Below are positions 2,556 to 64,000 of a DNA stretch of 64,000 nucleotides, in pieces. The number at the start of each line of letters is the position of its first letter. The first letter of the stretch is position 1. The DNA comes from an uncultured Candidatus Saccharibacteria bacterium (GTDB taxonomy: Bacteria; Patescibacteriota; Doudnabacteria; UBA920; O2-02-FULL-48-8), in the NCBI GenBank assembly GCA_964605735.1, contig CAZSDS010000001.1, positions 406,559 to 470,558 on the forward strand. Reading direction: 5' to 3'. The position numbers and the translations under genes are program-made. The notes beneath the pieces are model-generated. The model searched no databases. It was not told the DNA's origin and worked only from the letters and a program-made list of their open reading frames with translations.

Positions 2556-2658
2556 TCAGACCTCCTGAAAAAATGTAAGTGAACGATAGGGAATAATAGC
2601 ATTACCGGGCGTTTAGGTCAACGACACAAAATACCCAGTACTTGCTGAGTGATGAATG

Positions 2659-2682
2659 TTAAAAACCCGCACTAAGCGGGTC
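2659..2682 (-). terminator. rho-independent terminator at the left edge of the AT-rich island
   Basis: Hairpin ACCCGCACTAAGCGGGT (2665-2681), followed on the minus strand by a U-run, directly after the stop of the 2683..3072 gene. Confidence 0.55.
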
Positions 2683-3072
2683 TTAAGTTTTATATTCATC
2701 TTTCCCTAGCACTTCTGCTGGAACAATTTGTGCTTTCACCTTACTTTCACCTAAAATTTTCAACTTGGTTAATCTATGAACGCCGTCTAGAATTACCCAT
2801 CTGTCATTATAATAAGTCACTAATATCGGATAACTGGTATCCGAATTCATTGTACGTTGGTAATGTGTGGCCGAACCCTCAATCTTGTTTATAACATTGT
2901 TCGGTGTAAGGTTCCAATCATCAGTATCATCCTTATCCCAAACCGGCATATCCAAATGCCACTCCAAGTCTTTTACATCAAATTCTTTTACTTCAAGCGG
3001 TAATTGCCTTAACTTAACAGTATCTACATACATGTTAAGCCCGGCATCAGTTATTTCTTTAGGAGCAATCAT
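2683..3072 (-). CDS. ParB-like nuclease domain protein
   Basis: ILDGVHRL motif resembling the ParB/sulfiredoxin-fold DGxHR signature. AT-rich codon usage. 4-nt overlap with the upstream gene. Confidence 0.5.
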   Translation of the reverse strand: MIAPKEITDAGLNMYVDTVKLRQLPLEVKEFDVKDLEWHLDMPVWDKDDTDDWNLTPNNVINKIEGSATHYQRTMNSDTSYPILVTYYNDRWVILDGVHRLTKLKILGESKVKAQIVPAEVLGKDEYKT

Positions 3073-3677
3073 GTATTACGGTTAAAGTTTGCTTTCAATA
3101 AAGAACCTGCATCCACCTGCGACACTAACTTTTCTTCAGATTTCTTTGCTGGCAATATCTCGCGGATTCTTTTCCTGTCAACTTCATTTAAAGTAAAATC
3201 GCCTATATGCAAAATTTTTAAATTAATTGATTTCAATGTCTCATCTATAAACATATCCCTCAAAATTCTCTTTTGAAAACGGTGTGTAAAATCATCAAGC
3301 TCTATGGCTAATAACGGAATCAAATCTGCTTTGCGAAACACTACAAAGTCAATAGTTTTTCTATTTATTTTATTTCTATATGTGTATGTATCCGCAAACT
3401 TGATTGTAGGAGCAACTGTTGCGATGGAACTAACCAAAACCTGTGGAAACACATAATATTCATCCTGTAATAATTTCAAAAGCTTTCGAAAGAAATCCTC
3501 TTCAACTCGAGTCAGAATCCTCTTAGGTACATAGTGTTGAGGATGCAAAATTTGAGCAGGCTGAGCAGGATCATTTTCCTTTTGAACATCGGTAGAATCA
3601 AAATTGTAAGGGGGAATATTCTTGAAAACGAAAGTAAATACAAGGATAAATAGCAATAGAAATAAGATTGCAGACAT
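3069..3677 (-). CDS. DUF2726 domain protein (restriction-endonuclease-like fold) with N-terminal TM anchor
   Basis: N-terminal hydrophobic helix. Motif pattern TRVEEDFFRKL...YVFPQV...IDFVVF is typical of DUF2726. Confidence 0.55.
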   Translation of the reverse strand: MSAILFLLLFILVFTFVFKNIPPYNFDSTDVQKENDPAQPAQILHPQHYVPKRILTRVEEDFFRKLLKLLQDEYYVFPQVLVSSIATVAPTIKFADTYTYRNKINRKTIDFVVFRKADLIPLLAIELDDFTHRFQKRILRDMFIDETLKSINLKILHIGDFTLNEVDRKRIREILPAKKSEEKLVSQVDAGSLLKANFNRNT

Positions 3678-3683
3678 ATTAGA

Positions 3684-5186
3684 TTAAATATCTTCCTTAA
3701 CTTTTACAAAATCATAGCCTTCTTGTTTTGATTTCTCAATGTATTCTTGAATCATATCCAGAGTTTGTTGAGGCGGATAAACTTCGCCTTTCTCAGGGTC
3801 AATTTCATCCCTGCGCAATTCTCTACCCTGGTCAGTCATAGTACCGATATGGAAAATCCTGATCCGGCCATGACCATTGCTGCTTAAAGCTTTTTTAAGC
3901 AGACTTTCGGATTTTAACTTTGTGCTTGGAGGGATGGCAACCACGTCATATGGGTTTCCGTGTATGATCTGAAGATCCATAGCCTGAAACTCACGCAAGC
4001 TATCAGTAGTGCCATGCACTCCTGCAATACGGCCAATCGTCGGCCTTATGCCGCTCACCTGTTCAATCAGCTCAGTTGTTTTCTTCACATCACCTAAATC
4101 CGCGCGCGGACCGATAAAGCGCTTTGCGTATTCTTTTATCCCTGCATTAGGCTTGGCGCCTTCTTGCGCCCATTCATGAACACCAATGTCATGCCCTTCA
4201 TCAATTATTCTTTTGATAATGTGTTCTCGGCCAGGAATAAGTGATCCGACTATAAAAAATGTAGCTTTGGCATTCTGTTCTTTCAGTATGTCTAAAAGTT
4301 TTTCAGTTTCTTCATTCGGACCATCGTCAAAAGTCAGAGCCATGACTTTTTTGCCTTCTTTTTCCAGCTGCTTCATCTTTTCCGGATTCAATTTCCAGTG
4401 GACGTTCTTCCCAGCTACCCATTCCTTGGCCCCGCTTCTTTCCATAGCCCATTCTATTTTTTCAATCAAGCCGCCCAATCCGATCATTTTCAAAGCACGC
4501 AGTTTATCTTGGCTAGGTTCAAACTTGCCTTCGCTTCCCATAACCTGCTTGGCAATTTCCGGGTTCAATCGGAACATGTTCACAATCTGCGTTTGGTTTT
4601 CCTGGGCGGAATGGAGGATGTCTTCCTTGAACTTCTTTGGGTGGAACAGTTCGGAATCTACCCAGCCGTCAGGGATGTCTGCAGAGTGTCTTTCCAGAAA
4701 ACCATTGAGACGTTCCTGGATCTCCAGTAATTTGTTAAGGAAATCCACTGAGAATTCCTGCATGTTCAATTCTTCCAATGCTTTTGCTTTCTGGTTGAAT
4801 TCAGGGTTTGCGAATTTCTGGACTACATAAAAAGACTGGCCTTCCTGGGAGGAGTCAGATGGTTCACCTTCCACGAACATTGCTTTTGGAAAGAGGTCGC
4901 CCAACTCTTCCTGAGCAGTTTCATAGAATTTCTTCAGTCTAACGAATTCCTCGTGGTTCTTGCCACCTTGGTCAAAATATTCTGTGACTGCGTATTCAGG
5001 CTTGTCAAAATCGCGTTCCTGTCCGCCTTCCAGTTCTATAACCGCTGCTGGCTCCCCAAGCTTATGGATATCAAACTCGTGGTTTTCGTGAACTGCTTCC
5101 AAGTCCCTGTTAAATGGATGCAAGTCTTTTGCTTCTTCTGGTATGTATTTCTCTGGGTTCATGTTACTACTGATAATAATTTTCAC
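3684..5186 (-). CDS. polysaccharide deacetylase (NodB homology) domain protein with large acidic N-terminal region and no signal peptide
   Basis: NodB motifs TFDDGP and HEW... with conserved His/Asp in the C-terminal half. N-terminal ~260 aa unassigned. Confidence 0.6.
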   Translation of the reverse strand: MKIIISSNMNPEKYIPEEAKDLHPFNRDLEAVHENHEFDIHKLGEPAAVIELEGGQERDFDKPEYAVTEYFDQGGKNHEEFVRLKKFYETAQEELGDLFPKAMFVEGEPSDSSQEGQSFYVVQKFANPEFNQKAKALEELNMQEFSVDFLNKLLEIQERLNGFLERHSADIPDGWVDSELFHPKKFKEDILHSAQENQTQIVNMFRLNPEIAKQVMGSEGKFEPSQDKLRALKMIGLGGLIEKIEWAMERSGAKEWVAGKNVHWKLNPEKMKQLEKEGKKVMALTFDDGPNEETEKLLDILKEQNAKATFFIVGSLIPGREHIIKRIIDEGHDIGVHEWAQEGAKPNAGIKEYAKRFIGPRADLGDVKKTTELIEQVSGIRPTIGRIAGVHGTTDSLREFQAMDLQIIHGNPYDVVAIPPSTKLKSESLLKKALSSNGHGRIRIFHIGTMTDQGRELRRDEIDPEKGEVYPPQQTLDMIQEYIEKSKQEGYDFVKVKEDI

Positions 5187-5193
5187 ACTCGTA

Positions 5194-6753
5194 CTACTTA
5201 AGTAAGAACCTTCTAAAGTACTCTCTTAACTTTTCATTATGAATATAGACATAGGTTCCATAAATACCACGTGTCAAAAGCGTTTTGTAAATATTGATGA
5301 TATACCTCTTTAGCTCTGCATCATCCCACACAGCTCGCTTTCCATTCGCGTCATAATATTTATCTTTATCAACAATAATTGCCTTTTTAGTTTCATCGTA
5401 ATCAATCTCAGGACCGATTATCACTCCTGCATAATTTAAATCATAACCCTGAATAGTATGAATACAGCCAACTTCATTAACGGCATTCTTGGAATTTACC
5501 CAGTCATGTAAAACACTGTTCCAGAACAGTTTGGTTTCTCCAATTACGATATCTGGAATATTCTTATCTTTTTTTGAGAGCCATGGCCATGCATAACCAG
5601 CAATTACTCGTGAAAGTTTATGCTCAGCATCTTTTTGCTTAATCAACTCTACAAGCTGACCAACACTGTCCAAAATTCTAAAATCATACTGTTGAATTTG
5701 CAGGCCATCAACAGGCAAACCTTCTAAAATGTTATCTATAGCTTTAATGTAGTTATCCCCGCCTTTTATTCTTACCTGAGCCTTTAAACTGTATTCCTTG
5801 CTTTCCAAGGATTTTACGTGTGTCGGAAGAATATCTGTTGGTCTTACAGATTGTTTTTCGTCATAAAATAAGATAATTCTCTTTGCAGAAACTTTAATCC
5901 AATCAAGTTCCGTAGCGTCGCCATTCATCCCCAACAATCTATTTGTTTCATCGAAACTTCTATAGTTTGTTAAATTTCTCCTCTGCCTTAATCTATGCGC
6001 CTCATCAACTATCAAAACATCATATTCCTTTTTCGTGACTTCGTTTGGCCCAATAACCATTGAGGGATTTAACCCTTTAATACTCTGAAAAACTCTCTTT
6101 AATGTTTTTCTTAGGGAGCCCATAGCAACTACCAAGGCAACATTTTTAACTTTTTGCTCAGTGAGTTGTTTTATTAAAAAAGTTGCAAGTATTGTTTTGC
6201 CGGTACCCGGACCTCCATGTATCAAAAAGTACCTATTACCATCTCGCTTCAACTCTTCAAGTATATCTTCTGCAATCTCTAACTGCTCGTTTGTTAAAGT
6301 TTTGTAAGGAGAGTATTTAAATAAATCACTGTTTCTGATTTGTACTAAATCTTTTTCGGCAATATTTGAAAGCTGGAGATCTCGCCAAAGTTGTTCGAAT
6401 TTTCCACTATACTTTTCCTTATCATAGTAGTTATGGTGCTGCAATCCTCCGTTGCTATTTTGTAATAAGTACTTACCGTCAGCGGCCAGATACTCAATTA
6501 ACCAAGCCTCGGCATCTAGTGTTGCTGAAGCATTATATTCTTCATCTGTGATGATATGAATTTTTTCTAAACCTTGTCTATCTGGATTTTTTAAATGATC
6601 CCTAGTTCTTTTATATGCATTTAAAGATTGGCCTACATACAACTCTTTATTGTTTTCAATAATATAAACAACTGGCCAATTATTGCCAAAGTTAAAGTGC
6701 TTTATTTTTTCAGCGCCTTCTTTACTAAAGGAGTAAGTCTTGAATACTGCCAT
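5194..6753 (-). CDS. GIY-YIG nuclease domain fused to DUF2075-type P-loop NTPase (Schlafen/helicase-like ATPase)
   Basis: N-terminal VVYIIEN...LYVGQS...YKRTRDH (GIY-YIG). Walker A HGGPGTGKT and Walker B/DEAH VLIVDEAHRL. Length and C-terminal region typical of DUF2075. Confidence 0.6.
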   Translation of the reverse strand: MAVFKTYSFSKEGAEKIKHFNFGNNWPVVYIIENNKELYVGQSLNAYKRTRDHLKNPDRQGLEKIHIITDEEYNASATLDAEAWLIEYLAADGKYLLQNSNGGLQHHNYYDKEKYSGKFEQLWRDLQLSNIAEKDLVQIRNSDLFKYSPYKTLTNEQLEIAEDILEELKRDGNRYFLIHGGPGTGKTILATFLIKQLTEQKVKNVALVVAMGSLRKTLKRVFQSIKGLNPSMVIGPNEVTKKEYDVLIVDEAHRLRQRRNLTNYRSFDETNRLLGMNGDATELDWIKVSAKRIILFYDEKQSVRPTDILPTHVKSLESKEYSLKAQVRIKGGDNYIKAIDNILEGLPVDGLQIQQYDFRILDSVGQLVELIKQKDAEHKLSRVIAGYAWPWLSKKDKNIPDIVIGETKLFWNSVLHDWVNSKNAVNEVGCIHTIQGYDLNYAGVIIGPEIDYDETKKAIIVDKDKYYDANGKRAVWDDAELKRYIINIYKTLLTRGIYGTYVYIHNEKLREYFRRFLLK

Positions 6754-6759
6754 GCCAGA

Positions 6760-7107
6760 TTAGAGTTGAGTGTATTTTGTATGTTTGCCTTTTGCTTTAT
6801 CTACAGGATACTTCTTTTCGTTTATTTCCATCTTCTTAAGAAAAGCTTGTTTCAGATCAATATCCAGGTCATGTGAAATAAGTAAAATCCAATATAGAGT
6901 ATCCACGACTTCTTCAGCTATATCTTCTTTGTGTTCAACTATATATTTCTCGATTTCTTCTTTACTTTTCCATTGGAAATGTTCAGCGACCTCAGCCGCC
7001 TCAAGCATCAAAGAAAGAGCCAAGTCTTTAGGATTATGGAACTGTTTCCAATCCCTCTCGTCTCTGTATTTAATTATTCGGTCTGTTAATTCCTCGATAT
7101 CAGACAT
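6760..7107 (-). CDS. MazG-like nucleoside triphosphate pyrophosphohydrolase (all-alpha NTP-PPase)
   Basis: 115-aa ORF with LALSLMLEAAEVAEHFQW...EEVVDTLYWIL pattern of the MazG/dCTP-pyrophosphatase family. 6-nt gap to the downstream ATPase gene. Confidence 0.65.
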   Translation of the reverse strand: MSDIEELTDRIIKYRDERDWKQFHNPKDLALSLMLEAAEVAEHFQWKSKEEIEKYIVEHKEDIAEEVVDTLYWILLISHDLDIDLKQAFLKKMEINEKKYPVDKAKGKHTKYTQL

Positions 7108-7131
7108 TGCTTTTATGGTTAATACTCTATA

Positions 7132-7160
7132 ACTATGCTAACGTTTGCTTTTTTTGTCAA
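7132..7160 (-). promoter_or_regulatory. Putative sigma70 promoter for the MazG / GIY-YIG-DUF2075 operon
   Basis: Minus-strand -35 TTGACA, 17-nt spacer, -10 CATAGT, ~25 nt upstream of the MazG-like start. Confidence 0.4.
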
Positions 7161-7173
7161 AAAAACGCCACTT

Positions 7174-7530
7174 TTATATTATTGGATCAAATTTCTTGAG
7201 TATGTAATGAGTAATACCAGCAAATATAATTATAATGACTGCACCCAACCATTGATTAAGACTACCTGTCTGTATTGCTACCATTAGTTGAAATATTCCA
7301 GTAACTGCCTGGATCAATGCAAACGCTGCAGCAATTTTTGAAAATCTATTCGCGCTCTCACTTTCTTTCTTCAGATTACTACTCAAGGATTTCATTTCTG
7401 ATAATAATTTTTTATTTACACACCTTGAAAGTTCCTCAGAAGCGAGAGCTGCGTGGACAGGCCCCACCTTATTAATCCATTTATGTAACTGCATCTCACT
7501 GGCTTTTTCAAGTTCTGGTGAAAAATTCAT
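7174..7530 (-). CDS. small 2-TM membrane protein (possible effector/holin-like partner, hypothetical)
   Basis: 118-aa ORF with a soluble helical N-terminus and two C-terminal TM helices. Starts 2 nt after the stop of the upstream Excalibur ORF. Confidence 0.4.
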   Translation of the reverse strand: MNFSPELEKASEMQLHKWINKVGPVHAALASEELSRCVNKKLLSEMKSLSSNLKKESESANRFSKIAAAFALIQAVTGIFQLMVAIQTGSLNQWLGAVIIIIFAGITHYILKKFDPII

Positions 7531-7531
7531 A

Positions 7532-8041
7532 TCATTCGCAAGCTAATCCGTCTTTATCACTATCAAGTTTATACTTATCTACACCAACAACTGTTGCTGG
7601 GCCCCTAAAGTACGCTGGCCCATCTCCACTACCGCCAGCACAATCCACATCACTGGCTATCGGCACACATCCACCAAAATAATTTGGATCACAACTTGAT
7701 GAAGTTGGTGCTGGAGTAGGTGCAGTTTTCTGTGCGGGCGTTGGATTTGGTAATGGAGTCGGCGTAACTTGCGGCTTTGTTGTCGTTGTTGGATTAGGGG
7801 TTGGCTGTAGAGTTGGTGTTGGCGTGACTTCCTTCAACTCAACTTCGCTTGAAGGAGTTGAAATTTCTGGCGCAGTGTTTTGTGGGGCATCTTGGACACT
7901 TGGCAGATCCAGTTGGTTGTTAACTGTTGTTGTCGATGACTACGGCTCGCTAATGCTAGCCAAACCAATAAAACCGGCAATAATTATGCTTGGGATAATA
8001 CCTTTTCTTTTGAACCATCTTTTTGGTGTAGATATTTCCAT
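7532..8041 (-). pseudogene. Secreted Pro/Thr-rich Excalibur (calcium-binding) domain protein interrupted by an in-frame TAG
   Basis: ATG at 8041-8039 opens a signal-peptide-like 33-aa ORF (MEISTPKRWFKRKGIIPSIIIAGFIGLASISEP), then TAG. The same frame continues for 34 codons into the listed TTG-start ORF 7532..7837, which ends in DCAGGSGDGP...DSDKDGLACE (Excalibur motif). TAG is a normal stop in this window (pnp and ileS end in TAG). Confidence 0.45.
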
Positions 8042-9802
8042 TTAACTATAAATTTTCTCAATTTTTGATTTTAATGGAAGTGGTATCTCGAATGCCTGAG
8101 CCGAAACAAGATTTAATGCTAAATAAGGCTTGTGTTTATCACTCGCTTGAGTAATACCTATTTCCTCGTCCAAGTCATTTATGAAAATTACACTATCCCC
8201 TATACTTCTATTTACCGTGGATTCGATTTTTGCCGATGATTGATCTGCACTCTGCAAAGCCTCAGATGATTTGCCAGACTGATGATCCTTATCATACACA
8301 GCTAAATATGAAATCTTAAACTTATTCAGTAAATGCACATACACTTGGATACTGTCTTTACTGCCGCAGTCTATTAAAGTGTAATCGTACCTAAAAATAC
8401 CTATTTTTTTCGCTAGATACGGTATAACTGTTTTTTCAGTAGCGCCCTCTAACAAAATTACTTTTTTAGCGAAAAATAGCTCACTGCGATCTGGATTGAG
8501 CCAGTATGTCATATTGAAATTTTTTTTATCATCACTCAAGGTAAATAATTCTTCTGAACATTGAAGAGTTTTACTTCCTTCCTCAAGATTCTTTTTATAA
8601 ACAATGACTATTGACTTATACGCTTCTAAATCTAAGAAAGAACTTGAGTGCGTTGACAATACTACTTGCGTTCCAGACTCGGATAGACTCTGCAAGGATG
8701 AGAACAGCTCTCGTTGAGCCTGAGGATGTAAATACAATTCAGGCTCTTCATAAAAAAGATAAATGGATTTCGAAGCAGAGCGACTTAATGTCTGTTCCTC
8801 TGAGATCTCAGTACTTGCTTTAACCCAAGCTTTAATGAGTGCAAAAATTAACGAACGCTGCAGTCCATTACCCTTCCTATCAACATCTGTGGGTACGCCG
8901 TCATCAACCCAAACAGAAGTCCCTAGACGCATAACCTCATCAATATCAGGCGGTGTTATTTCAATACTAATTTTTGTATCCCACTGCCTAAGTTCATCCT
9001 CAAGCAAACTCTCTAATTTGCTAATTTCGGCTGGTCTATTTTGGTTTTGAGCACCTGTAGAGACGGTTTTGTTTAAATTCTGTGCCAGTTCAGCAATTCT
9101 CTTTTTCGCATCCTTATAAGCATCGTTATTTTTTGACATCTCATTAATAACATTGGAAAAAAGCTGACTAAAAATTGATTTACTTTTTATGTTGAATTCA
9201 TCTCCGACGTTCTTTACCGCAGGCACAAAAAATACCTGACCAAATATACCTTGTGCGACAGATTTTAGGCCTAGAAAGTGAGAATGCTCCAATTGATATA
9301 AAAAGTTAACGGAACCAGTATGATCTTCAATATACTTTCTTTGGGCTTGTATTACCATCTCTTTTGTAACTCTTCCTTCATGGGGAATATATTGCAGAAG
9401 AGGTGTGCCTTGTATAACATCTCTGTTATTCAACTGGCCTGCACTCTCCTCTCGTAACCAACTATCTGAAGGTATCTGACAGTAGCCGTGATACTCAGGT
9501 GGATCACCCTTAATAACCTGCTTTCTTACAGTTATCGCTCCTTCACTGGTCAGATACTTTTTAAATTGATTTTTGTCATGATCATCCAGATCACAAAAAG
9601 TGACCTCGACATGCAACTCTTCTGATCCTTTATTAAAGTCCATTTCAGAAATTGAAATATACCCAAAAAAGAATAGCAGGGCAGTCAAAATATTTGACTT
9701 ACCATGATTATTTTGACCAATAAAAATCATCAAAGATTGAAAATCGACTTCACAATCCTTAATGGAGCGCCAGTTATGAATTCTTAGCTTCGAAATTCTC
9801 AA
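8042..9802 (-). CDS. OLD-family ATP-dependent endonuclease (N-terminal ABC/AAA15 ATPase plus C-terminal TOPRIM), class-1-like (no helicase partner)
   Basis: Start MRISKLRIHNWRSIKD, Walker A GQNNHGKSNIL, C-terminal TOPRIM VILLEGATEKTVIPYL. 586 aa, the same size as phage P2 Old. TTG start overlapping the upstream stop (TTGA). Confidence 0.8.
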   Translation of the reverse strand: MRISKLRIHNWRSIKDCEVDFQSLMIFIGQNNHGKSNILTALLFFFGYISISEMDFNKGSEELHVEVTFCDLDDHDKNQFKKYLTSEGAITVRKQVIKGDPPEYHGYCQIPSDSWLREESAGQLNNRDVIQGTPLLQYIPHEGRVTKEMVIQAQRKYIEDHTGSVNFLYQLEHSHFLGLKSVAQGIFGQVFFVPAVKNVGDEFNIKSKSIFSQLFSNVINEMSKNNDAYKDAKKRIAELAQNLNKTVSTGAQNQNRPAEISKLESLLEDELRQWDTKISIEITPPDIDEVMRLGTSVWVDDGVPTDVDRKGNGLQRSLIFALIKAWVKASTEISEEQTLSRSASKSIYLFYEEPELYLHPQAQRELFSSLQSLSESGTQVVLSTHSSSFLDLEAYKSIVIVYKKNLEEGSKTLQCSEELFTLSDDKKNFNMTYWLNPDRSELFFAKKVILLEGATEKTVIPYLAKKIGIFRYDYTLIDCGSKDSIQVYVHLLNKFKISYLAVYDKDHQSGKSSEALQSADQSSAKIESTVNRSIGDSVIFINDLDEEIGITQASDKHKPYLALNLVSAQAFEIPLPLKSKIEKIYS

Positions 9803-10005
9803 GCAATTTTAGTGTAGGAATAAGTATTTTTGACGTGATTTGCGAAAAAGCTACCCTTAGATCCAGCTGACATAAGTTGACTAAATACACCCTCCGGAAC
9901 TCCGTGATACTGGTATGTGCCACCATTCACAAATTCGACCTCTAATACACTAGCTTCGTACCCAATAGATCTAATATCACTTGAATTTACAGTTTGTCTC
10001 AACAT
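9799..10005 (-). CDS. KTSC domain protein
   Basis: 68-aa ORF with YQYHGVPEGVFSQLMSAGSKGSFFANHVKNTYSY, matching the KTSC (lysyl-tRNA-synthetase C-terminal-like) domain signature. Stop TGA overlaps the TTG start of the OLD gene. Confidence 0.65.
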   Translation of the reverse strand: MLRQTVNSSDIRSIGYEASVLEVEFVNGGTYQYHGVPEGVFSQLMSAGSKGSFFANHVKNTYSYTKIA

Positions 10006-10044
10006 ATTTTTTATTGAATAAATTATATATCAACTTATTATTAA

Positions 10045-10075
10045 ATAAAAACACCCTGAAAAGGGTATTTTTATT
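10045..10075 (-). terminator. rho-independent terminator after pnp (right edge of AT-rich island)
   Basis: Hairpin ACCCTGAAAAGGGT flanked by A/T runs, immediately downstream of the pnp TAG stop. Confidence 0.55.
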
Positions 10076-10076
10076 A

Positions 10077-12329
10077 CTAATGCCTTGCAAACCTTGGACC
10101 ACCTCTCCTGTGATCGCCATTTCCATGCCCATGACCGCCTCTGCCGTGGCCACCATGTCCGTGTCCGCCTCGTGAAGGCCTTGAACCGCCTTCTGGTCTG
10201 TCTGGCATGCCTTCTGGTTTTGGAATCATAACTCTGTGTGACAAATTCACTCGTCCCATTTGATCAATCTCAATCACTTTCACTTCCAACTCATCCCCAA
10301 TCTTCACAACATCCTCAACTTTCCCGACTCTTTCCCAACCCAGTTCTGAGATGTGCACCATGCCATCGTGTCCTGGCACTAATTCCACAAACGCACCAAA
10401 GTCCATGATGCGCACTACTTTTCCTTTAAAGACTTCGCCAACCTGAATCTCACGAGTCAGATCTTTGATCCACTGCACAGCCTTGGCACTTCCTTCAGCA
10501 TCATCTGAAGTGACCATAACCAAACCTGAATCTTCAATGTCGATCTGCACGCCAGTCTCAGCAATAATTTTGTTGATGACTTTACCGCCGGTTCCAATTA
10601 CATCGCGGATCTTTTCCGGATTAATGTGGAAAGAAACAATTCGCGGAGCCAGTGGCGACAAATCAGCGCGAGGCGCAGAAATCGCCTGCTTCATTACAGA
10701 CAGAATATGCATGCGGCCAGCTTTAGCGCCTTTGATGGCCTCAGCCAGAATATCAACCGTCAAACCCTTGGCCTTATTATCCATCTGAATTGCGGTAATG
10801 CCTTTTTCAGAGCCAGTGACTTTAAAGTCCATATCACCATTGCCGTCTTCAATTCCCTGAATGTCAGTCAGCACTTTGAACTTGCCGGATTTTTGATCAA
10901 AGATCAAACCCATGGCAACTCCACCGATCATATCAGAAATTGGCACGCCTGCATCCATCAAAGCCAGAGTTGAACCACAAGTAGAGCCCATGGATGTTGA
11001 ACCGTTTGAACCCAAAGCCTCAGAAACCAATCTTAATGTATAAGGGAATTTTTCTTTGTCAGGGATGACGACTTCTACTGCGCGCTCAGCCAAAGCTCCG
11101 TGTCCGATTTCTCTTCTTCCAGGGCCGCGCATAGGAGCGACTTCACCTACAGAGTAACCAGGGAAATTGTAATGGTGAATATAGCGCTTATGTGTTTCCA
11201 CAAAATCTTCCATGCCATCAAGAATCTGCGCATCACCGGATGAACCCAATGTGACAGTAGTTAAAATCTGAGTCTCGCCGCGGTTAAACAGCGCTGAGCC
11301 ATGAGTTCTAGGCAGTACGCCAACAGCACAGGAAACTTCTCTGGTCTTATCAAGCGGCCTTAAATCCACGCGCCTGTCGCGCTCTAAAATATTCTCACGA
11401 ATAACTTTCTTCAAAACCTTATCAAATGCCAAACCAAAATGCTGGGCAAAATTCAAAGTTTCATTAGAAGCAAAGTGCGTGGCCAGCTCTTCTGCCAAAG
11501 CTTTTTTAGCCGCATCAAGCCTTGCCTCACGCTCCGCCTTAGGGAATGTGCCATACAAAGCCTCTTCAATCTGCCCTTTTCTTTCAATCACAGCGTTTAA
11601 CACCGCTTCATCCGGCAAAACCAAAACAGGTTCGACTTTTTCCAGCCCAACCTTTTTCTTGATCTCTGCCTGCATTGCAGCCAGTTCGCCCAGGTAAGGC
11701 ATTGCAAAGCGCAATGCTTCAATCATGTCATCTTCTGAAACCTGTTTAGCACCTGCTTCCACCATCATGACATGCTCGCCGGAACCGGAAACCACCAGGT
11801 CCAAATCAGAAGCATTCTTCTGTTCGTAATTAGGGTTGATAATGAACTTACCGTCCACCCGTCCTACGCGCACGCCCGCGATCGGCCCCTCAAAAGGGAT
11901 GTCGGAAACTTCCAAGGCTGCGGAAGCGGCATTGATGGCCAGAACATCCGGATCATTGACTTCGTCAACTGACAAAATAGTCACGACAATCTGCACGTCA
12001 TTGCGCATGCCGTCCGGGAACAACGGACGCAAACTTCGGTCAACCAATCTGCCTGTTAAGATTGCATCATCTGTGGCGCGGCCTTCGCGTTTTATGAAGC
12101 GGGAACCTTTGATCTTTCCTGCCGCGTAAAGTCGTTCCTCATAATCAACCAAAAGCGGGAAGTAATCCATTCCTTCCCTGACCTTGTTGCTCATCACAGC
12201 TGTGGCCAAAACCACAGTATCACCCAAACGTGCCAAAACAGAGCCGTTTGCTTGTTGTGCCAACACCCCTGTTTCAAAGGAGAATTTCTTTCCGTCTATC
12301 TCCTTTTCTACTTTTTCTACTTTTTGCAT
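10077..12329 (-). CDS. pnp: polyribonucleotide nucleotidyltransferase (PNPase) with Gly/His-rich C-terminal tail
   Basis: Two RNase PH domains, KH and S1 domains recognisable. Adjacent to rpsO. Tail GGHGHGGHGRGGHGHGNGDHRRGG. Confidence 0.95.
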   Translation of the reverse strand: MQKVEKVEKEIDGKKFSFETGVLAQQANGSVLARLGDTVVLATAVMSNKVREGMDYFPLLVDYEERLYAAGKIKGSRFIKREGRATDDAILTGRLVDRSLRPLFPDGMRNDVQIVVTILSVDEVNDPDVLAINAASAALEVSDIPFEGPIAGVRVGRVDGKFIINPNYEQKNASDLDLVVSGSGEHVMMVEAGAKQVSEDDMIEALRFAMPYLGELAAMQAEIKKKVGLEKVEPVLVLPDEAVLNAVIERKGQIEEALYGTFPKAEREARLDAAKKALAEELATHFASNETLNFAQHFGLAFDKVLKKVIRENILERDRRVDLRPLDKTREVSCAVGVLPRTHGSALFNRGETQILTTVTLGSSGDAQILDGMEDFVETHKRYIHHYNFPGYSVGEVAPMRGPGRREIGHGALAERAVEVVIPDKEKFPYTLRLVSEALGSNGSTSMGSTCGSTLALMDAGVPISDMIGGVAMGLIFDQKSGKFKVLTDIQGIEDGNGDMDFKVTGSEKGITAIQMDNKAKGLTVDILAEAIKGAKAGRMHILSVMKQAISAPRADLSPLAPRIVSFHINPEKIRDVIGTGGKVINKIIAETGVQIDIEDSGLVMVTSDDAEGSAKAVQWIKDLTREIQVGEVFKGKVVRIMDFGAFVELVPGHDGMVHISELGWERVGKVEDVVKIGDELEVKVIEIDQMGRVNLSHRVMIPKPEGMPDRPEGGSRPSRGGHGHGGHGRGGHGHGNGDHRRGGPRFARH

Positions 12330-13748: not shown

Positions 13749-14723
13749 ATGCCAGAAAAACAAATCGAAATAAAATCTAAACTCCATCGCTACTACATCC
13801 AATTCCTAGAATATTTGGAAATCGAACGAAACCGATCCAGATTAACCCTGCGCAACTACGACCACTATCTCAAAAGATTTGTGGACTTTTGCGCTAAAAA
13901 ATACGGCGTAACAGACCCAGAAGAAATTGACCTTGAATTGATCCGTTCATATCGCCTTTTTCTGAACCGGTTTGAAGAAAACGGCAAACCCCTGAAAATG
14001 ATCACCCAAAACTATCACTTGATTGCCCTTCGCAGTTTTTTCAAATACCTCTCCAGGCGCGACATAAAGTCCCTAGCCGCAGAAAAAATTGAACTGCCAA
14101 AGCCGCCTTCCAGGCACGTGGAATTTTTGGAACCCGCAGACGTGGCAAATCTGATTGACTCCACCAAACAGGAAAAAGACAAACTGACCCGCCTGCGCGA
14201 CAAAGCCATTTTGGAAACCTTGTTTTCAACCGGCCTGCGCATCTCTGAGCTCTGCAACCTGAACAAAGATTCCATCAACACCAAACGCCGGGAATTTTCC
14301 GTAAAAGGCAAGGGTGACAAAATCCGCCTGGTCTTTTTGTCTGACCGGGCCATTGCCTCAATAGAGGAGTACCTGAAAGCCCGGGACGACAATTCCAAAG
14401 CCCTGTTCATCCGCCACGACCATAAAGAGTCCGTGGAAAAGCAAATGAAATCATTCAGCGAGAAAGCCATGGGCCTGACCCCGCGCACCGTCCAGCGCAT
14501 TATAAAAAAATATGCCAAACTTGCCGGCATAATGAAAAATATCAGCCCGCACACCCTGAGGCATTCGTTCGCCACTGATCTGCTGTCCAACGGCGCTGAT
14601 ATCCGCGCCGTGCAGGAGCTTTTGGGCCACGCTTCAATCTCAACCACCCAAATTTACACCCATTTGACCAACCGCCGCCTGAAAGACGTTTACGACAAAT
14701 ACCACAATGACAAGAACAAGTAG
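13749..14723 (+). CDS. xerC: tyrosine site-specific recombinase (XerC/XerD family)
   Basis: C-terminal catalytic motifs RHSFAT...LLGHASISTTQIYTHL with the Tyr nucleophile. 324 aa. Confidence 0.85.
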   Translation: MPEKQIEIKSKLHRYYIQFLEYLEIERNRSRLTLRNYDHYLKRFVDFCAKKYGVTDPEEIDLELIRSYRLFLNRFEENGKPLKMITQNYHLIALRSFFKYLSRRDIKSLAAEKIELPKPPSRHVEFLEPADVANLIDSTKQEKDKLTRLRDKAILETLFSTGLRISELCNLNKDSINTKRREFSVKGKGDKIRLVFLSDRAIASIEEYLKARDDNSKALFIRHDHKESVEKQMKSFSEKAMGLTPRTVQRIIKKYAKLAGIMKNISPHTLRHSFATDLLSNGADIRAVQELLGHASISTTQIYTHLTNRRLKDVYDKYHNDKNK

Positions 14724-59782: not shown

Positions 59783-62479
59783 CTATGCAAGCTTAACTTT
59801 TTCAAAGGTTATTTTTTGTGCTTTGCTATCATAAACAGCTTCAGCCTTATCGCCCTCAGTAATTTTCCCTGACAGCATCTCTCGAGCAAGTTCAGTCTCA
59901 ATCTCGGATTGAATTTTCCGTTTCAATTCTCGCGCACCAAACTCGGGCGTATAGCTTTCCTCTGAAATTTTTTCAACAACCGGTTGAGTAAAAATCAATT
60001 CAATGCCTTGTCCGCGGGCAGTCTGTCGGACCCGCTCTAACTGCAGAGTGGTGATTAATTTGATCTGCTCTTTTGTAAGCGCGTGGAAAATGATGATTTC
60101 ATCTATGCGATTTAAAAATTCGGGACGGAACCGTAAACGCAATGTTTCCATTAAGCTCTCCTTTAACTGTTCAGTTGATTTTTGCTCTTGCTTTTTAGCG
60201 GTAAGATTGCTTTGAATAATATCAGACCCAATATTACTCGTGGCAATAATAATCGTATTAGTGAAATCAACCAGCCGTCCCTTACCGTCGGTTAATCGAC
60301 CGTCATCAAATATTTGCAACAAAATATTATAAACATCGGGGTGAGCTTTTTCGATTTCATCTAAAAGAATGACACTATACGGGCGTCTTCGTACCGCCTC
60401 AGTCAACTGACCACCCTCCTCGTAGCCGACATATCCTGGCGGTGCTCCGACCAGCCGAGAAACTGCATGTCGTTCCATGTATTCACTCATGTCAATCCTG
60501 ATCATCGCATCTTCATCTCCAAAAACTGTCCATGCCAGGGCTTTGGCTAACTCTGTTTTTCCAACTCCTGTTGGGCCTAAAAACATAAAATTTGCAATCG
60601 GTCTGTCTTTGGCCGAAAGACCCGCTCGGGATCTTCTAATGGCATCAGAAACAGATACCACAGCCTGATCCTGCCCAATCACCCGCTCGTGTAATTTTTT
60701 CTCTAATTGCAGAAGCTTGTCTCTCTCTTCTTGGGTTAGCTCATAAACTGGGATACCTGTGATTTTTGAAACCACTTGTGCGATATGCTCTTTAGTAACT
60801 TCTGCGGTGGTAACGCCTTTTTGTTTGCGCCAAGCACTTTCTTTTTCTCCTCGAGTAATTTCCATTTTTTTAATTTGAGCCTCCTGCTTTTTAGCAGTAT
60901 CAAATTGTTTATGACCTACAGCGTAATCATGTTCTCTTTTGAGCTTAGTAATCTCATCATCGATTTGTTTAACCGCTTCCGGTCGGGAGGAGATGGTGAT
61001 TCTAACTCTGGATGCGGCCTGATCTATAAGATCGATGGCTTTATCAGGCAGAAATCGATTACTTATGTATCTATTTGATAATTCAGCGGCTGCGACAATG
61101 GCTTCGTCGCTGATTTTAACCTTGTGATGAGCTTCATAACGGTCACGAAGTCCGCGCAAAATTTCAATTGTTTGTTCAATTGTTGGCTCACTAACAAATA
61201 CTGGCTGGAATCTTCTTTCTAAGGCAGCATCCTTTTCAATATGCTTCTGGTATTCGCTTAATGTTGTAGCGCCAATAAGATGCAACTCTCCCCGGGCCAA
61301 GTGCGGTTTAATTACATTCGAAGCACTTAAGCCACCTTCATCTCCCATGCCACCGGCGCCGACAATAGTGTGCAACTCATCGATAAATAAAACCAACTCA
61401 TCTTTATGAGCTACGACTTCGTCCAGAACCTGTTTAATACGCTCTTCAAATTCCCCGCGGTATTTGGACCCTGCCACCATAGAATTTAAACTAAGCTCCA
61501 GCACTCGTTTATTTTTCAATGTCTCCGGCACTTGGTCTTGAATCACGCGTTGAGCTAATCCCTCTACAATGGCGGTTTTACCAACACCTGGTTCTCCAAT
61601 TAAGACAGGGTTATTTTTTGAGCGTCTGGAAAGTATTTCAATTGTCGTTTCAATCTCTTCAGCACGCCCAATCACAGGGTCAAGTTTGTTGTTACGCGCC
61701 AACTGGGTCAAATCACGGGAATATTTATCCAAAGTTGGGGTGGTCGTATGAGTTTCTACTCTGCCTTCCGCAGCACCTCGCCCGACAATTTTAACTATTT
61801 TTTGCCGCAAAGCTTCCGGTGTCAGTCCATATCTTCGCAGTAAATCCCCAGCCATGCCTTCGTCTTCAATTAAAAGTGACAATAATAAATGCTCAGGGCC
61901 AATATAATTATGTCCAAGTTCGTTGGCTGACTGAAAAGCAATTTCAAGTACTGTCTTAATGCGGGGGGAAATACTTAACTGAACGGTTTGGCCTTTTTCG
62001 GTCTTAAAGTTACCTTTCGGACTATTATTCTCAATAAAACTTTTGATATCGTCCGAATTTATTTTGAACTGTTTGTAAAGCTCTTTCACAACATCACTGT
62101 CCGAAATTGAATGCAAGAGATGTTCTGTATCAACTTCATCACGATTAAATTTAACTGCGGTTTGTGCGGCGTTTTGAATAAGCTCCTTGGTGTGGTCAGA
62201 AAGATATTGATCAATATCCACCGCCTCCCTATGACGAGGCAATGGGTAGCCTATGCGGGACGATAGATTTTCGAAATCATCGCCAAAATCCGAGAATAAA
62301 TCATTTAAGCCATTATTCTGGGAAAACATCCGTTCAAGTGGAGATCCTGCCTGTTGGCTCTGGAGTCTTCTTAAGTCCAGACTGCAAACACTAATCGTTT
62401 CTCTAATCCCATTTCGAATAACTGCGACTTGGTTAGTTGCCGGTCTTATTCCGCAAATATCACAAATCCGTTCAACCAT
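59783..62479 (-). CDS. clpC: ATP-dependent Clp protease ATP-binding subunit ClpC (two AAA+ modules, UVR-like linker) with Cys-rich N-terminal extension
   Basis: Two Walker A sites ([16 protein letters not shown]), Clp_N repeats, UVR motif in the middle domain, ClpB/ClpC signatures. N-terminal ICDICG...VC zinc-ribbon-like extension. Confidence 0.9.
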
Positions 62480-62500
62480 TTGTAATTCCTTTCCAATAAT

Positions 62501-63058
62501 TCATGTTTTTAATCCGGCAGCCCTTAGGGCTCGAATGAGATTTTTATAATAATATGATCCGTCGTGGCGGACACCATTAACATAAAATGTTGGTGTGCCA
62601 TTTACACCGCTTCTGACACCACTTATAAAATCTCGATCAACTTTTGTTTTGTAAATCCTGCTGGCTAAATCATTGACAAATTTATCTGCATCCAAACCCA
62701 ATGCCTGGGCATAGCGTACTAAAGATGCCTCATCTAGAGCATCTTGATGTTCAAATAATGCGTTGTGCATTTCCCAAAACTTTCCCGCAGATCCCGCAGA
62801 TTCTGATGCTTCGGAGGCTTGCTCTGCGTGGGGGTGAATTTCTGTCAGGGGAAAATGACGATAACTAAAAAGGATTTGATTGCCGTAAACTTTTAATATG
62901 TCTTTTACTATGCCATAAACCTCGCCGCAGTGCGGGCATTCAAAATCGCCATATTCCAACATGGTTATATTACTGTTCTGATTGCCAATCACATGATCGG
63001 AAGCGTCAATGGGAGTAGTAAGTTTGGCGGTAATTGCTTGTGATTGAAATACTTCCAT
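62501..63058 (-). CDS. DsbA-like thioredoxin-fold protein (no obvious signal peptide)
   Basis: CPHC active site in a YGDFECPHCGEVY context. Confidence 0.75.
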   Translation of the reverse strand: MEVFQSQAITAKLTTPIDASDHVIGNQNSNITMLEYGDFECPHCGEVYGIVKDILKVYGNQILFSYRHFPLTEIHPHAEQASEASESAGSAGKFWEMHNALFEHQDALDEASLVRYAQALGLDADKFVNDLASRIYKTKVDRDFISGVRSGVNGTPTFYVNGVRHDGSYYYKNLIRALRAAGLKT

Positions 63059-63583: not shown

Positions 63584-63592
63584 AAAAATGCA

Positions 63593-63871: not shown

Positions 63872-63942
63872 ATACCACACGTTGGTCAATTCTAGCAGTA
63901 ACCTAGCCTTAAGTCCAGTATAAAGCCTATTAGCCAAAAGCC

Positions 63943-63971: not shown

Positions 63972-64000
63972 TAGACGTTATAATCGGCTATTGAAAAGTG

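Follow-up and report, generated by a model that had tools for sequence, protein, structure and literature searches.

What is the AT-rich block of genes that lies beside pnp in this CPR bacterium, a Patescibacteria/Doudnabacteria relative, and is it, as an earlier note held, a horizontally acquired defence island? Within the window (the whole 64-kb stretch of DNA that was analysed), positions 2659-10075 have a GC content of 37.8% against 46.2% in the rest, and form the lowest-GC 7.4-kb stretch (7.4-kb windows: mean 0.455, sd 0.023). The nine co-directional minus-strand genes attributed to the block were found as ORFs where they had been placed, and the features of the locus, all on the minus strand, are as follows.

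2665-2681, minus strand: hairpin with U-tract, probable terminator, immediately past the stop codon of the block's last gene; left GC border
2683-3072, minus strand: 129-aa ParB/Srx-fold protein (fold from a structure model)
3069-3677, minus strand: 202-aa protein with a TM helix (residues 4-18) and a DUF2726 domain; overlaps the ParB/Srx-fold gene by 4 nt
3684-5186, minus strand: 500-aa protein with a C-terminal NodB-type polysaccharide deacetylase domain
5194-6753, minus strand: 519-aa protein that joins a GIY-YIG domain (about residues 1-110) to a DUF2075/SLFN-group-3 SF1B helicase
6760-7107, minus strand: 115-aa all-alpha MazG-like NTP pyrophosphohydrolase, 6 nt upstream of the helicase gene
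7108-7173, minus strand: 66-nt spacer with a promoter-like site, TTGACA-17-CATAGT, at 7160-7132 (consensus match only)
7174-7530, minus strand: 118-aa protein, N-terminal part soluble, followed by two TM helices at the C-terminus; GC3 0.29
7532-8041, minus strand: 169-aa frame, membrane-anchored, Pro/Thr-rich, Excalibur-like, Cys-rich; starts directly after the OLD stop
8042-9802, minus strand: 586-aa class-1 OLD family nuclease, ABC-type ATPase and TOPRIM
9799-10005, minus strand: 68-aa KTSC-domain protein; its stop overlaps the TTG start of the OLD gene (TTGA, 4 nt)
10006-10066, minus strand: AT-rich spacer with a promoter-like site at 10033-10006; right border of the block
10077-12329, minus strand: pnp, context gene; the last syntenic gene, at whose 3' end the shared gene order stops

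Most of the domain assignments made earlier were recovered by Pfam-type profile search (OLD, KTSC, MazG-like, DUF2075 as an SLFN-group-3 helicase, DUF2726 and Polysacc_deac_1), while GIY-YIG is supported by family members and invariant motifs, and what was called a ParB-like nuclease is supported by the structure model as a ParB/Srx fold, though not as a nuclease.

Composition sets the block apart from its surroundings and also divides it. Across eight of the nine genes GC3 is 0.27-0.34, against 0.526 ± 0.069 in 51 ORFs outside (z of about -2.8 to -3.7), and the GC change-points, near 2560-2680, 3700-3760, 5060-5100 and 10070-10090, fall at gene borders. The central deacetylase gene is the exception: with a GC of 43.9%, a GC3 of 0.454 and a codon bias, measured against native genes, of 0.208, below the native mean of 0.312, it is compositionally native, and because it carries native codon usage the block is a mosaic and not one unit. 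Similarly, the 33-38% GC once given for all nine genes fails both here and at 7532-7837, where overall GC reaches 47.7% because of the Pro/Thr-rich product, yet GC3 is 0.27. The deacetylase domain itself (Polysacc_deac_1, 4e-21) occupies residues 276-405, the N-terminal half having no assigned domain and no signal peptide being evident in the protein. Only seven proteins among 1.84 billion representatives are homologous at E<=1e-30; the best, 78% identical and as close as the best pnp homologue, aligns from residue 9, and translation probably begins at the ATG at 5162.

The borders are marked by the two hairpins reported earlier, both stable folds with U-tracts on the minus strand, although terminator-like sites in total are no commoner than in shuffled sequence. 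The left one (fold of 2640-2700, minus strand: dG -18.9 kcal/mol, z -4.6) is probably the terminator of the block and bidirectional in shape, whereas that at 10053-10066 (dG -14.7, z -3.9) is simply the pnp terminator. Between them the genes are packed with gaps of 0-7 nt or 4-nt overlaps, as described, except for the 66-nt spacer and an apparent 204-nt gap at 7838-8041, which proves to be the 5' part of the Excalibur-like frame, broken by an in-frame TAG at 7940-7942 in what is a probable pseudogene or sequencing error. This layout is consistent with the two or three operons proposed. The 66-nt spacer, in which the fold test found no stable hairpin, may hold an internal promoter of the MazG/DUF2075 cassette, judging from its consensus match; such matches are no commoner in the window than in shuffles.

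Gene order around pnp bears directly on how the block arose. Of 185 fetched loci, totalling 2.67 Mb, 160 are pnp neighbourhoods (L001-L160), and none of these contains block genes, including those of the closest relatives, at 70-74% pnp identity (74% being the highest to any relative found). Upstream of pnp, synteny is kept through rpsO, an Xer-like recombinase and a 585-aa gene (the last in L002, L005 and L012); it breaks exactly at the pnp terminator, downstream of which every relative examined has different cargo. Homologues of the OLD and DUF2075 proteins at 52-63% identity are scattered across unrelated phyla, in changing neighbourhoods, and are usually AT-richer than their hosts. Together with the odd composition and codon usage, these observations support horizontal acquisition of eight of the block genes. 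As 74% is the nearest pnp identity available, the gain may be recent or the content old and lineage-specific. A search of the borders for an integrase, a tRNA or a flanking direct repeat found none to account for the insertion, in agreement with the earlier note. We suggest that foreign, AT-rich cassettes entered the locus to the left and right of a deacetylase-fusion gene that is itself native.

Of all the block proteins, OLD is the only one matching a recognised defence family in Pfam and PADLOC profiles. It carries Walker A (GQNNHGKSN, 29-37) and Walker B (FYEEPE, 350-355) motifs together with the TOPRIM glutamate in LLEGATE (450-456) and DKD (504-506), matches AAA_15 (2.6e-38), OLD-like_TOPRIM (3.4e-16) and phrog_4747 (3.8e-77), and aligns best, over its full length, with the PADLOC Old profile (1e-76, 257 bits, against 139 for AriA). 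With all its catalytic motifs present, it is by sequence an intact ATP-driven TOPRIM nuclease. In the PDB its match is 6p74, an OLD-family endonuclease (6.6e-20, against 7e-6 for GajA), which we take to be the class-1 enzyme of Thermus scotoductus. Like that protein, phage P2 Old and the Vibrio cholerae OLD, it joins an N-terminal ABC ATPase to a C-terminal TOPRIM domain in one polypeptide, and it has no adjacent helicase, reverse transcriptase or AriB. Gabija (the OLD-class-2 nuclease GajA with the UvrD-like helicase GajB) also pairs an OLD nuclease with an SF1 helicase, here on the same strand within 1.3 kb; the helicase of the block is SF1B/DUF2075 rather than UvrD-like, three genes intervene, and homologues of the two proteins never occurred together in the other loci examined. 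An assignment of the nuclease to GajA was rejected on score (134 bits).

What distinguishes this class 1 OLD, besides its CPR host, is its context. In three of four contexts, homologues 59-63% identical to it are part of, or adjoin, type II R-M operons, unlike the gene studied here, which is instead preceded by the KTSC gene (Pfam KTSC, 1.8e-21; PDB 7x8c, 2e-15) with which it is predicted to be translationally coupled. KTSC is missing from all four of those contexts, so the coupling may be accidental. A small KTSC module physically coupled to a defence ATPase-effector pair recalls SIR2-HerA and the HerA, KTSC and endoDNase systems noted by Aravind and colleagues: KTSC is fused to HerA in PDB 8wiv, whose C-terminus the block protein matches at 2e-13, and in two plasmids its gene lies downstream of SIR2-HerA, its start overlapping the preceding stop. 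In our locus, by contrast, the ATPase is of the OLD/ABC type, the KTSC gene is upstream and there is no SIR2.

The second module is the MazG/DUF2075 pair. The helicase has a Walker A (GGPGTGKT, 180-187) and a DEAH (250-253) motif, and the small protein the acidic motifs LEAAEVAE and AEEVVD; the latter matches Pfam MazG-like (3.6e-11) and the pyrophosphatase family phrog_3301 (7.7e-15) and is closest to dCTP pyrophosphatase 1 (PDB DCTPP1/RS21-C6, about 1e-19). Gene neighbourhoods identify it as a conserved partner of the helicase. Among nine independent contexts, taken from L164-L175 and L186-L189 (the metagenomic, viral and first plasmid loci retrieved), a MazG-like gene adjoins the DUF2075 gene in six, and in five of five at identities of at least 42%, with gene order swapped in one; over all fetched loci, its homologues stood next to helicase homologues in 12 of 12 cases and nowhere else. 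The two are also adjacent, with gaps of about 250 nt, in the 21 B. cereus-group plasmids present in both hit tables. The pair occurs across CPR genomes, viral or mobile-element contigs and Bacillus plasmids, in cassettes AT-richer than their hosts at most loci, flanked by Dam methylase, RhuM, Panacea toxin-antitoxin, integrase, VapE primase and SNF2/UvrD helicase genes. About half of the top helicase homologues add a LexA-like S24 domain. DUF2075 proteins 55-63% identical to the helicase are, however, very common among CPR genomes, and we note that the S24 and MazG associations of the DUF2075 family fit a DNA-damage or repair role too.

No PADLOC model covers this architecture. Its nearest parallel is Nhi (S. 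epidermidis SERP2475) and the 'Nhi-like' proteins (Millman et al. 2022), in which an N-terminal nuclease is likewise joined to a DUF2075 SF1B helicase; the structure-space neighbours of our protein are Dda, Upf1 and DNA2-type helicases, and its family shares plasmid and island contexts. Yet the nuclease is GIY-YIG where that of Nhi is PD-(D/E)xK, the Nhi/AbiO profile similarity is confined to residues 142-329, in its relatives as well, and rather than a single-gene system there is a DCTPP1-like MazG partner, to which relatives add the S24 domain, a separate GIY-YIG gene (between the two genes in B. albus) or a type-IV-REase-like DUF3578 gene. A Priestia plasmid has the last as a DUF3578-MazG-DUF2075 operon within a type I R-M/ABC-3C island, and the PADLOC model for type IV methyl-directed REases recognises the DUF3578 neighbours. 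Resemblance to type IV restriction, which extends to the dCTP pyrophosphatase-like partner, recalls McaZI-type neighbourhoods, where DUF2075 NTPases lie next to nucleases that read modified DNA (PMC6765204); since the window copy lacks a reader-domain gene, dependence on modification would be an extrapolation.

The claim that nearly all content is of the anti-phage kind, and with it the label of defence island, is only partly supported: the DUF2726, ParB/Srx-fold, deacetylase, 2-TM and Excalibur-like genes have no demonstrated role in defence, and Pfam and PADLOC profiles gave no such evidence for the last three. The DUF2726 protein (Pfam, 7.6e-21; phrog_14167, 3.9e-9; GC3 0.31; no PADLOC match) belongs to a family described as an REase fold associated with mobile elements, and its domain is predicted to be a PD-(D/E)xK, Vsr-like nuclease fold. 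The ParB/Srx-fold protein, whose DGxHR box (LDGVHRL, residues 95-101) is invariant and which matches phrog_17560, belongs to a small, CPR-wide family of proteins of about 130 aa, whose named members are Patescibacteria, and its nuclease activity is putative. This family also occurs beside housekeeping genes, as in some of three other contexts, none of which showed the pairing with DUF2726. The two may form a third module, an AT-rich add-on of a membrane-anchored nuclease-fold protein and an NTP-binding one. Passenger genes would be the 2-TM gene, with no Pfam, NCBIfam or PHROG match and a weak PADLOC CorA-like one (1.5e-4) limited to the TM hairpin, and the nonsense-broken Excalibur-like gene, the C-terminus of whose product matches Pfam Excalibur at 0.0028. 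A 148-aa protein of the same architecture directly follows the MazG/DUF2075 pair in one locus (L164).

Taken together, we consider it fairly probable that this stretch is accessory DNA of mosaic make-up, occupying a variable site immediately past the pnp terminator, and that it holds at least two nucleic-acid-targeting immunity modules: KTSC with OLD, and the MazG/DUF2075 pair, a strong candidate because of its architecture and conserved neighbourhood. An unlikely alternative is that these are accessory genes for DNA damage and nucleotide sanitation, the MazG-like enzyme cleaning the dNTP pool, the GIY-YIG-helicase processing damaged DNA or stalled forks, the S24-bearing relatives being activated when RecA* induces their self-cleavage, in the manner of UmuD or LexA, and low GC reflecting weakly expressed, lineage-specific genes. 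The S24 domains of close homologues are indeed of the LexA/UmuD type (Cys-Gly site, GDSM serine, conserved lysine), DCTPP1 is a house-cleaning enzyme, GIY-YIG is also the UvrC/Slx1 nuclease fold, DUF2075 proteins abound on large CPR contigs of 0.8-1.0 Mb, and one locus (L194) has a MutT neighbour. Against this stand the variable genomic positions of the pair, its presence on plasmids and viral or mobile-element contigs, its R-M, toxin-antitoxin and integrase neighbours, its low GC relative to hosts, the type-IV-REase-like partner in two plasmids and the architectural match to Nhi, a validated defence protein; OLD, a defence nuclease, is moreover left unexplained.

We regard as doubtful, too, a decayed prophage or satellite that lost its integrase and structural genes while superinfection-exclusion cargo survived, like old on phage P2. 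Such an origin would fit the phage-family matches of the OLD, MazG-like, ParB/Srx-fold and DUF2726 proteins and of KTSC (phrog_3292, phrog_8113), the nonsense-broken gene, and the serine or tyrosine recombinases that adjoin OLD and DUF2075 homologues elsewhere. It sits poorly with a block in which structural, replication and integration genes, att-like repeats and a tRNA target were not found and a native-composition gene lies in the middle. Close relatives of the block genes hardly occur among 2.9 million viral contigs, where an alignment-based DUF2075 scan gave five loci at 42-44% identity and single-protein scans for OLD and the ParB/Srx-fold and DUF2726 proteins found none; the sole nearby recombinase (13749-14723) is a chromosomal Xer, since it is conserved in all relatives. 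A misassembly or binning chimera splicing AT-rich foreign DNA into the contig is most improbable: the sequence does come from a metagenome-assembled genome, every block protein is a singleton at 90% identity found on a single 797-kb contig, and the GC steps are sharp, but all four transitions lie at gene borders with frames and spacing intact across them, the block encloses a native gene, the terminators at its borders look functional, and similar AT-rich cassettes occupy variable sites across many independent assemblies.

Returning to the two immunity modules, we propose by analogy how each might work. OLD would stay inactive until an infection disturbs the DNA metabolism of the host, as P2 Old fires upon RecBCD inhibition (PMC12904381), and once triggered would nick DNA or cut tRNA, with KTSC possibly a small nucleic-acid-binding or assembly partner, as for HerA in SIR2-HerA. 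In the second module, the SF1B helicase would translocate along DNA that is invading the cell or being replicated, and the GIY-YIG domain joined to it would nick that DNA, as in Nhi (bioRxiv 776245). The MazG-like partner could remove the non-canonical dNTPs, probably 5-modified pyrimidines, that such phages need, or otherwise tune the system. The dCTP pyrophosphatase closest to it prefers 5-modified dCTP. The MazG/DUF2075 pair, widespread and undescribed, is a good candidate, from its sequence and gene context, for a variant of nuclease-helicase immunity.

The AT-rich gene block at 2659-10075 that an earlier note had taken for a probable horizontally acquired defense island beside pnp (10077-12329, minus strand) is real, but it is a mosaic. 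We consider it reasonably probable that the block is a mosaic accessory region in a variable spot downstream of pnp, in which foreign cassettes have accumulated around a native gene, g3, and which includes at least two immunity modules. Its nine co-directional minus-strand ORFs (2683-10005) are present as described, and the domain calls for OLD, KTSC, MazG-like, DUF2075, DUF2726 and NodB deacetylase were all matched by profile searches of the block proteins; GIY-YIG is supported by a relative and by conserved residues.

Genes of the block, g1 to g9
g1, from 2683, minus strand, ParB/Srx-fold protein
g2, 3069-3677, minus strand, TM helix and DUF2726 with a Vsr-like PD-(D/E)xK fold, a family noted for its association with mobile elements
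g3, 3684-5186, minus strand, 500 aa with a C-terminal NodB-type deacetylase (4e-21)
g4, 5194-6753, minus strand, SLFN-g3/DUF2075 helicase (1.6e-64) with an N-terminal GIY-YIG domain
g5, 6760-7107, minus strand, MazG-like protein (Pfam, 3.6e-11), nearest solved structures DCTPP1/RS21-C6 (about 1e-19)
g6, 7174-7530, minus strand, 2-TM protein with no family match
g7, 7532-8041, minus strand, membrane-anchored Pro/Thr-rich Excalibur-like frame with an in-frame TAG at 7940-7942
g8, 8042-9802, minus strand, ABC ATPase with OLD-type TOPRIM
g9, 9799-10005, minus strand, KTSC domain (Pfam, 1.8e-21)

With 37.8% GC against 46.2% in the rest of the window, the block is the lowest-GC 7.4-kb stretch of the 64 kb (sliding mean 0.455, sd 0.023). 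Measured against a native reference set, formed by 51 ORFs outside the block that do not overlap and are 120 aa or longer, eight of its nine genes are deviant both in GC3 (0.27-0.34 versus 0.526 ± 0.069; z about -2.8 to -3.7) and in codon bias (0.42-0.67 versus 0.31 ± 0.07). The exception is the deacetylase fusion g3, whose GC3 of 0.454 and codon bias of 0.208 mark it as compositionally native, so that the sliding-GC and codon-usage checks uphold a foreign composition for eight genes but not for a uniform block. GC change-points fall at about 2560-2680, 3700-3760, 5060-5100 and 10070-10090, each at a gene border. The best g3 homologue is 78% identical, as close as the best pnp relative, and this together with the composition suggests that g3 was inherited vertically. 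Because that homologue aligns from residue 9 of the listed ORF, the start of g3 is probably the ATG at 5162. The full architecture is rare, since a search of 1.84 billion proteins gave only seven representatives at E<=1e-30, and the N-terminal half (about 270 aa) has no family match.

Both borders carry the expected hairpin terminators, which fold well on the minus strand and are followed by U-tracts (dG -18.9, z -4.6; dG -14.7, z -3.9); one of them terminates the block and the other simply belongs to pnp. Sites resembling terminators or promoters do not exceed their number in shuffles. As the earlier note had observed, the borders lack an integrase, tRNA or direct repeat: Rfam is empty across the block, and a search for flanking att-like direct repeats returned only chance-level 14-16-mers. 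The tight packing is borne out by overlaps of 4 nt at KTSC/OLD and at g2/g1 and by 1-7 nt between most other genes; the exceptions are a spacer of 66 nt ahead of the MazG gene and what looks like a gap of 204 nt following OLD. The latter is in fact the 5' part of the broken g7 reading frame, which begins with an ATG directly 3' of the OLD stop and is interrupted by a single TAG at codon 34. The product of an intact g7 would have a TM anchor and a Pro/Thr-rich linker as well as a Cys-rich domain resembling Excalibur; in a related locus (L164, 7573-8019) a protein built in this way is encoded next after the MazG/DUF2075 pair, and the window copy is probably a nonsense pseudogene or a sequencing error.

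Comparison with 160 pnp neighbourhoods from relatives locates the block at a break in gene order. The pnp protein is 70-74% identical to those of Candidatus Doudnabacteria MAGs (L001, L002, L012, L081) and 59-64% identical to those of other Patescibacteria. Upstream of pnp the relatives keep rpsO and a 324-aa Xer-like tyrosine recombinase, together with a 585-aa gene in L002, L005 and L012. Downstream, neither the block genes nor the left-flank ORFs (39-2555) have a homologue within 10 kb of pnp in relatives, and the ORFs that relatives carry downstream of pnp are in turn missing from the whole window. As cargo at this place, L081 has an APH kinase, a zeta-like kinase, an EEP nuclease and GrpB; L001 has a methyltransferase and, in a stretch of 30-34% GC, ORFans; and L002 has DUF2207. 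Since conservation ends at the 3' end of pnp and the cargo differs from one relative to the next, this position is both a synteny break and a variable spot. Block genes are absent from all 160 neighbourhoods, the closest of which has only 74% pnp identity, and the exact block proteins occur once each, all on one 797-kb NCBI contig; genome and metagenome pnp scans gave nothing above 74% identity and no strain-level empty site. Their deviant composition and codon usage, along with their absence from these neighbourhoods, support horizontal acquisition of the eight genes well. Scans of 2.9 million viral contigs returned nothing for OLD, g1 or g2 and only five loci for the DUF2075 alignment, and thus do not support a phage origin.

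Several further features of this neighbourhood deserve mention. The recombinase gene in the window (13749-14723, plus strand; 324 aa, Phage_integrase and SAM_1), 3.7 kb from the block, can be ruled out as an island integrase, as it is 56-71% conserved beside rpsO-pnp in L001-L005, L012 and L081; its fixed place across Patescibacteria relatives identifies it as a chromosomal Xer-type enzyme. In L001, the closest GTDB relative, a 30-34% GC stretch at about 7500-11500, 3-7 kb downstream of pnp, encodes three ORFans (270, 153 and 820 aa) that match nothing in Pfam, which suggests that the same chromosomal neighbourhood gathers AT-rich foreign genes in relatives too. The C-terminus of pnp itself (10077-10200, minus strand) bears an unusual Gly/His/Arg-rich tail, …RPSRGGHGHGGHGRGGHGHGNGDHRRGGPRFARH; tblastn alignments to most relatives stop short of it near residue 700-730, and a few (L001, L006, L058, L069) reach 748-750. 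At the far end of the window, the last 2 kb (62000-64000) fall to about 40% GC, and the ORF at 62501-63058 (minus strand; GC3 0.335) is the only one outside the block whose GC3 resembles that of the block genes. Another AT-rich accessory patch may run off the window there.

The defense content of the block is narrower than its gene names had implied: the OLD nuclease is supported, the MazG/DUF2075 pair is plausible, and the remaining genes are not supported. PADLOC recognises only OLD at full length and leaves the MazG/DUF2075 module as a candidate, while the other five block genes have no significant match to its defense families (g6 has a weak CorA-like TM match, 1.5e-4). Homologues of g1 occur in varied places, by ribosomal protein genes, beside a glycosidase operon and near an MmeI/Fic island, and a conserved pairing of g2 with g1 is not supported, as three other g1 contexts show no DUF2726 partner.

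The OLD protein g8 has an intact ATPase (AAA_15, 2.6e-38; AAA_21, 2.4e-14) with Walker A GQNNHGKSN at 29-37 and Walker B FYEEPE at 350-355, and a TOPRIM domain (OLD-like_TOPRIM, 3.4e-16, residues 443-506) with its catalytic Glu in LLEGATE (450-456) and the DxD motif DKD (504-506). The PADLOC Old profile scores best (1e-76, 257 bits), ahead of AriA (class 4; 139) and the best GajA (class 2; 134), and the NCBIfam retron Eco8 effector, a class 3 model, reaches 66 bits against a cut-off of 250. A PDB search likewise favours the OLD-family endonuclease 6p74 (6.6e-20), which we take to be the class-1 Thermus scotoductus OLD, over GajA (7e-6). The adjoining genes encode the KTSC protein and the broken Excalibur-like protein, with no UvrD-type helicase, retron RT/ncRNA or AriB among them. 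This fit to profiles and motifs, together with the lack of such neighbours, places g8, as judged from its sequence, as a further member of the known class 1 OLD nucleases. A Gabija-like pairing of OLD with the DUF2075 helicase is rejected, because homologues of the two were never found together in the loci compared and the class 1 profile is the one that OLD fits; whereas Gabija joins the OLD nuclease GajA to an adjacent UvrD-like helicase, GajB, the block contains no UvrD-like gene.

Homologues that share 52-63% identity with g8 come from CPR, Omnitrophica, Bacteroidota, Planctomycetota and Betaproteobacteria, and three of four contexts lie inside or beside type II R-M operons. Two of these (L161, 3832-8454; L183, 2832-7239) run from an HTH controller through an N4/N6 MTase, a BsaWI-like REase and OLD to a second MTase with gaps of 3-5 nt, and a third (L184, 577-6779) combines OLD with an AlwI-like REase and two MTases; the three OLD homologues are 61-63% identical to g8 by tblastn. 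Such an OLD/R-M fusion operon may be a system of its own. KTSC adjoins none of the four OLD homologues, so its role as a conserved partner is not supported; we retain it only as a local coupling, itself unusual, for which SIR2-HerA loci offer a precedent. In plasmids of Sulfitobacter and Rhizobium (L190, 973-4210; L191, 987-4213) genes for SIR2, a HerA-like ATPase and KTSC follow one another with overlapping stops and starts, in a Paenibacillus SIR2-HerA structure KTSC is fused to HerA, and HerA + KTSC + endoDNase systems have been mentioned by Aravind and colleagues. From its position after SIR2 and HerA-like ATPase genes on plasmids, KTSC looks like a recurrent accessory of defense ATPases, and a KTSC-assisted class-1 OLD nuclease may be a second, smaller novelty of this locus.

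The strongest new result concerns the pair formed by the MazG-like gene g5 and the GIY-YIG-DUF2075 gene g4. The GIY-YIG domain of g4 falls below threshold (4e-4), yet that of a relative with 44% identity passes it (8.9e-8), and the residues Y30, Y39-x-G41, R49, H53 and E82 are invariant across 25 sequences. Among nine independent contexts drawn from metagenome, viral and plasmid loci (L164-L175, L186-L189), a MazG-like gene with 43-67% identity to g5 adjoins the g4 homologue in six.

Contexts with a MazG-like neighbour, with identity of the g4 homologue
L164/165, 61%, MazG immediately upstream
L166/167, 62%, MazG immediately upstream
L168-170, 59%, MazG adjoining; the g4 homologue also has an S24 domain
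L171-173, viral, 44%, MazG with a 4-nt overlap; S24 domain; VapE/BT4734 primase gene adjacent
L174/175, viral, 42%, MazG adjoining in swapped order
B. thuringiensis pIS56-233, 37%, MazG 147 nt upstream

The MazG neighbour is absent where g4 identity is 36% (L187), 32% (L189) and 30% (L188). In the 2.67 Mb of fetched loci all 12 g5 homologues lie beside g4 homologues, and in the 21 B. cereus-group plasmids that appear among the hits of both genes, a distance of about 250 nt separates them. The pair also varies in its parts. About half of the top g4 homologues carry a C-terminal LexA/UmuD-type Peptidase_S24 domain, missing from the window copy, with its Cys-Gly site, GDSM serine and conserved lysine, which suggests RecA*-dependent activation and autocleavage in these relatives. 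A B. albus plasmid (L193, 1508-6134) has a separate 686-aa GIY-YIG protein between the MazG and DUF2075 genes; a Priestia plasmid (L194, 3937-7255) has a DUF3578-MazG-DUF2075 operon in an island, with a type I R-M system on one side and an ABC-three-component system on the other; and in Paenibacillus (L187, 2606-5665) a DUF3578 gene takes the place of MazG upstream. Both DUF3578 proteins match the PADLOC model of a type IV methyl-directed REase.

The closest described relative of g4 is Nhi, a PD-(D/E)xK nuclease joined to a bipolar helicase (bioRxiv 776245); a review describes it as unwinding and nicking DNA, with the detection of phage SSB as its presumed trigger (PMC12904381). Like Nhi, g4 combines an N-terminal nuclease with a DUF2075 SF1 helicase in one polypeptide. 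Whereas the nuclease of SERP2475 is PD-(D/E)xK, that of g4 is GIY-YIG; the PADLOC matches to Nhi (5.7e-19) and AbiO (7.9e-19) are confined to residues 142-329 of its 519, and five relatives show equally partial matches; and Nhi is a single-gene system, the Nhi-like entry of Millman et al. being a single protein, unlike g4 with its conserved MazG-like partner. Sequence comparison thus portrays g4 as a protein that may work like Nhi but differs in nuclease type, full-length profile match and single-gene status. No paper in the literature collection searched names both DUF2075 and MazG.

Anatomy, intact catalytic motifs, conserved linkage and mobility are what is directly established for the block, and its proposed mechanism draws on related systems. 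According to the review cited above, P2 Old fires on RecBCD inhibition and cuts tRNA anticodon arms (PMC12904381, citing PMC12445682), and the V. cholerae class-1 OLD nicks DNA (PMC12904381, citing PMC12392090). From family knowledge we would expect the same logic of the OLD in the window, where the KTSC protein may aid nucleic-acid binding or assembly. By analogy with Nhi, the SF1B motor of g4 would load on phage replication intermediates, which the GIY-YIG domain would nick. DCTPP1-type enzymes prefer 5-modified dCTP. Combined with the type-IV-REase-like neighbours and with DUF2075 NTPases noted beside modification-dependent endonucleases (PMC6765204), this speculatively suggests a role for the pair against modified-pyrimidine phages.

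We tentatively posit, as a possibility short of an even chance, that the MazG-like and GIY-YIG-DUF2075 pair is an undescribed, modular and widespread immunity system of CPR, viral and mobile-element contigs and Bacillota plasmids. It would destroy non-canonical dNTPs (those with modified pyrimidines) and, coupled to this, use its helicase to drive the nicking of invading DNA. Optional parts would set the trigger or the target, be it a LexA-type S24 domain that is RecA*-cleavable, a DUF3578 reader akin to type IV restriction enzymes or an additional protein with GIY-YIG. The main rival, a DNA-damage or dNTP-sanitation module, would account for the S24 domain, the MazG component and the abundance of the pair in CPR genomes, but sits less easily with its mobility, with its R-M, toxin-antitoxin or integrase neighbours and with its AT-richness, the cassette being AT-richer than the host locus in four of six comparisons (GC 0.37 versus 0.52 in L168, 0.31 versus 0.43 in L173).

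CPR/Patescibacteria have tiny genomes, to our knowledge often without CRISPR, and little is known of how they resist phages. The locus described here indicates that they take up compact nuclease cassettes at a variable site beside a core gene; such islands are ordinary for bacteria but little documented in CPR. The conserved MazG-like and GIY-YIG-DUF2075 cassette is the more general result, tying the Schlafen-type helicase family, represented by Nhi in bacteria and SLFN11/13 in mammals, to a dCTP-pyrophosphatase-type enzyme and, in relatives, also to SOS-type autocleavage and type IV restriction. If its role in defense is true, nuclease-helicase immunity would gain a component that acts on the nucleotide pool, and a two-gene construct open to direct testing would be available; if it is a repair module instead, it would be a common and so far unrecognised one in CPR bacteria.
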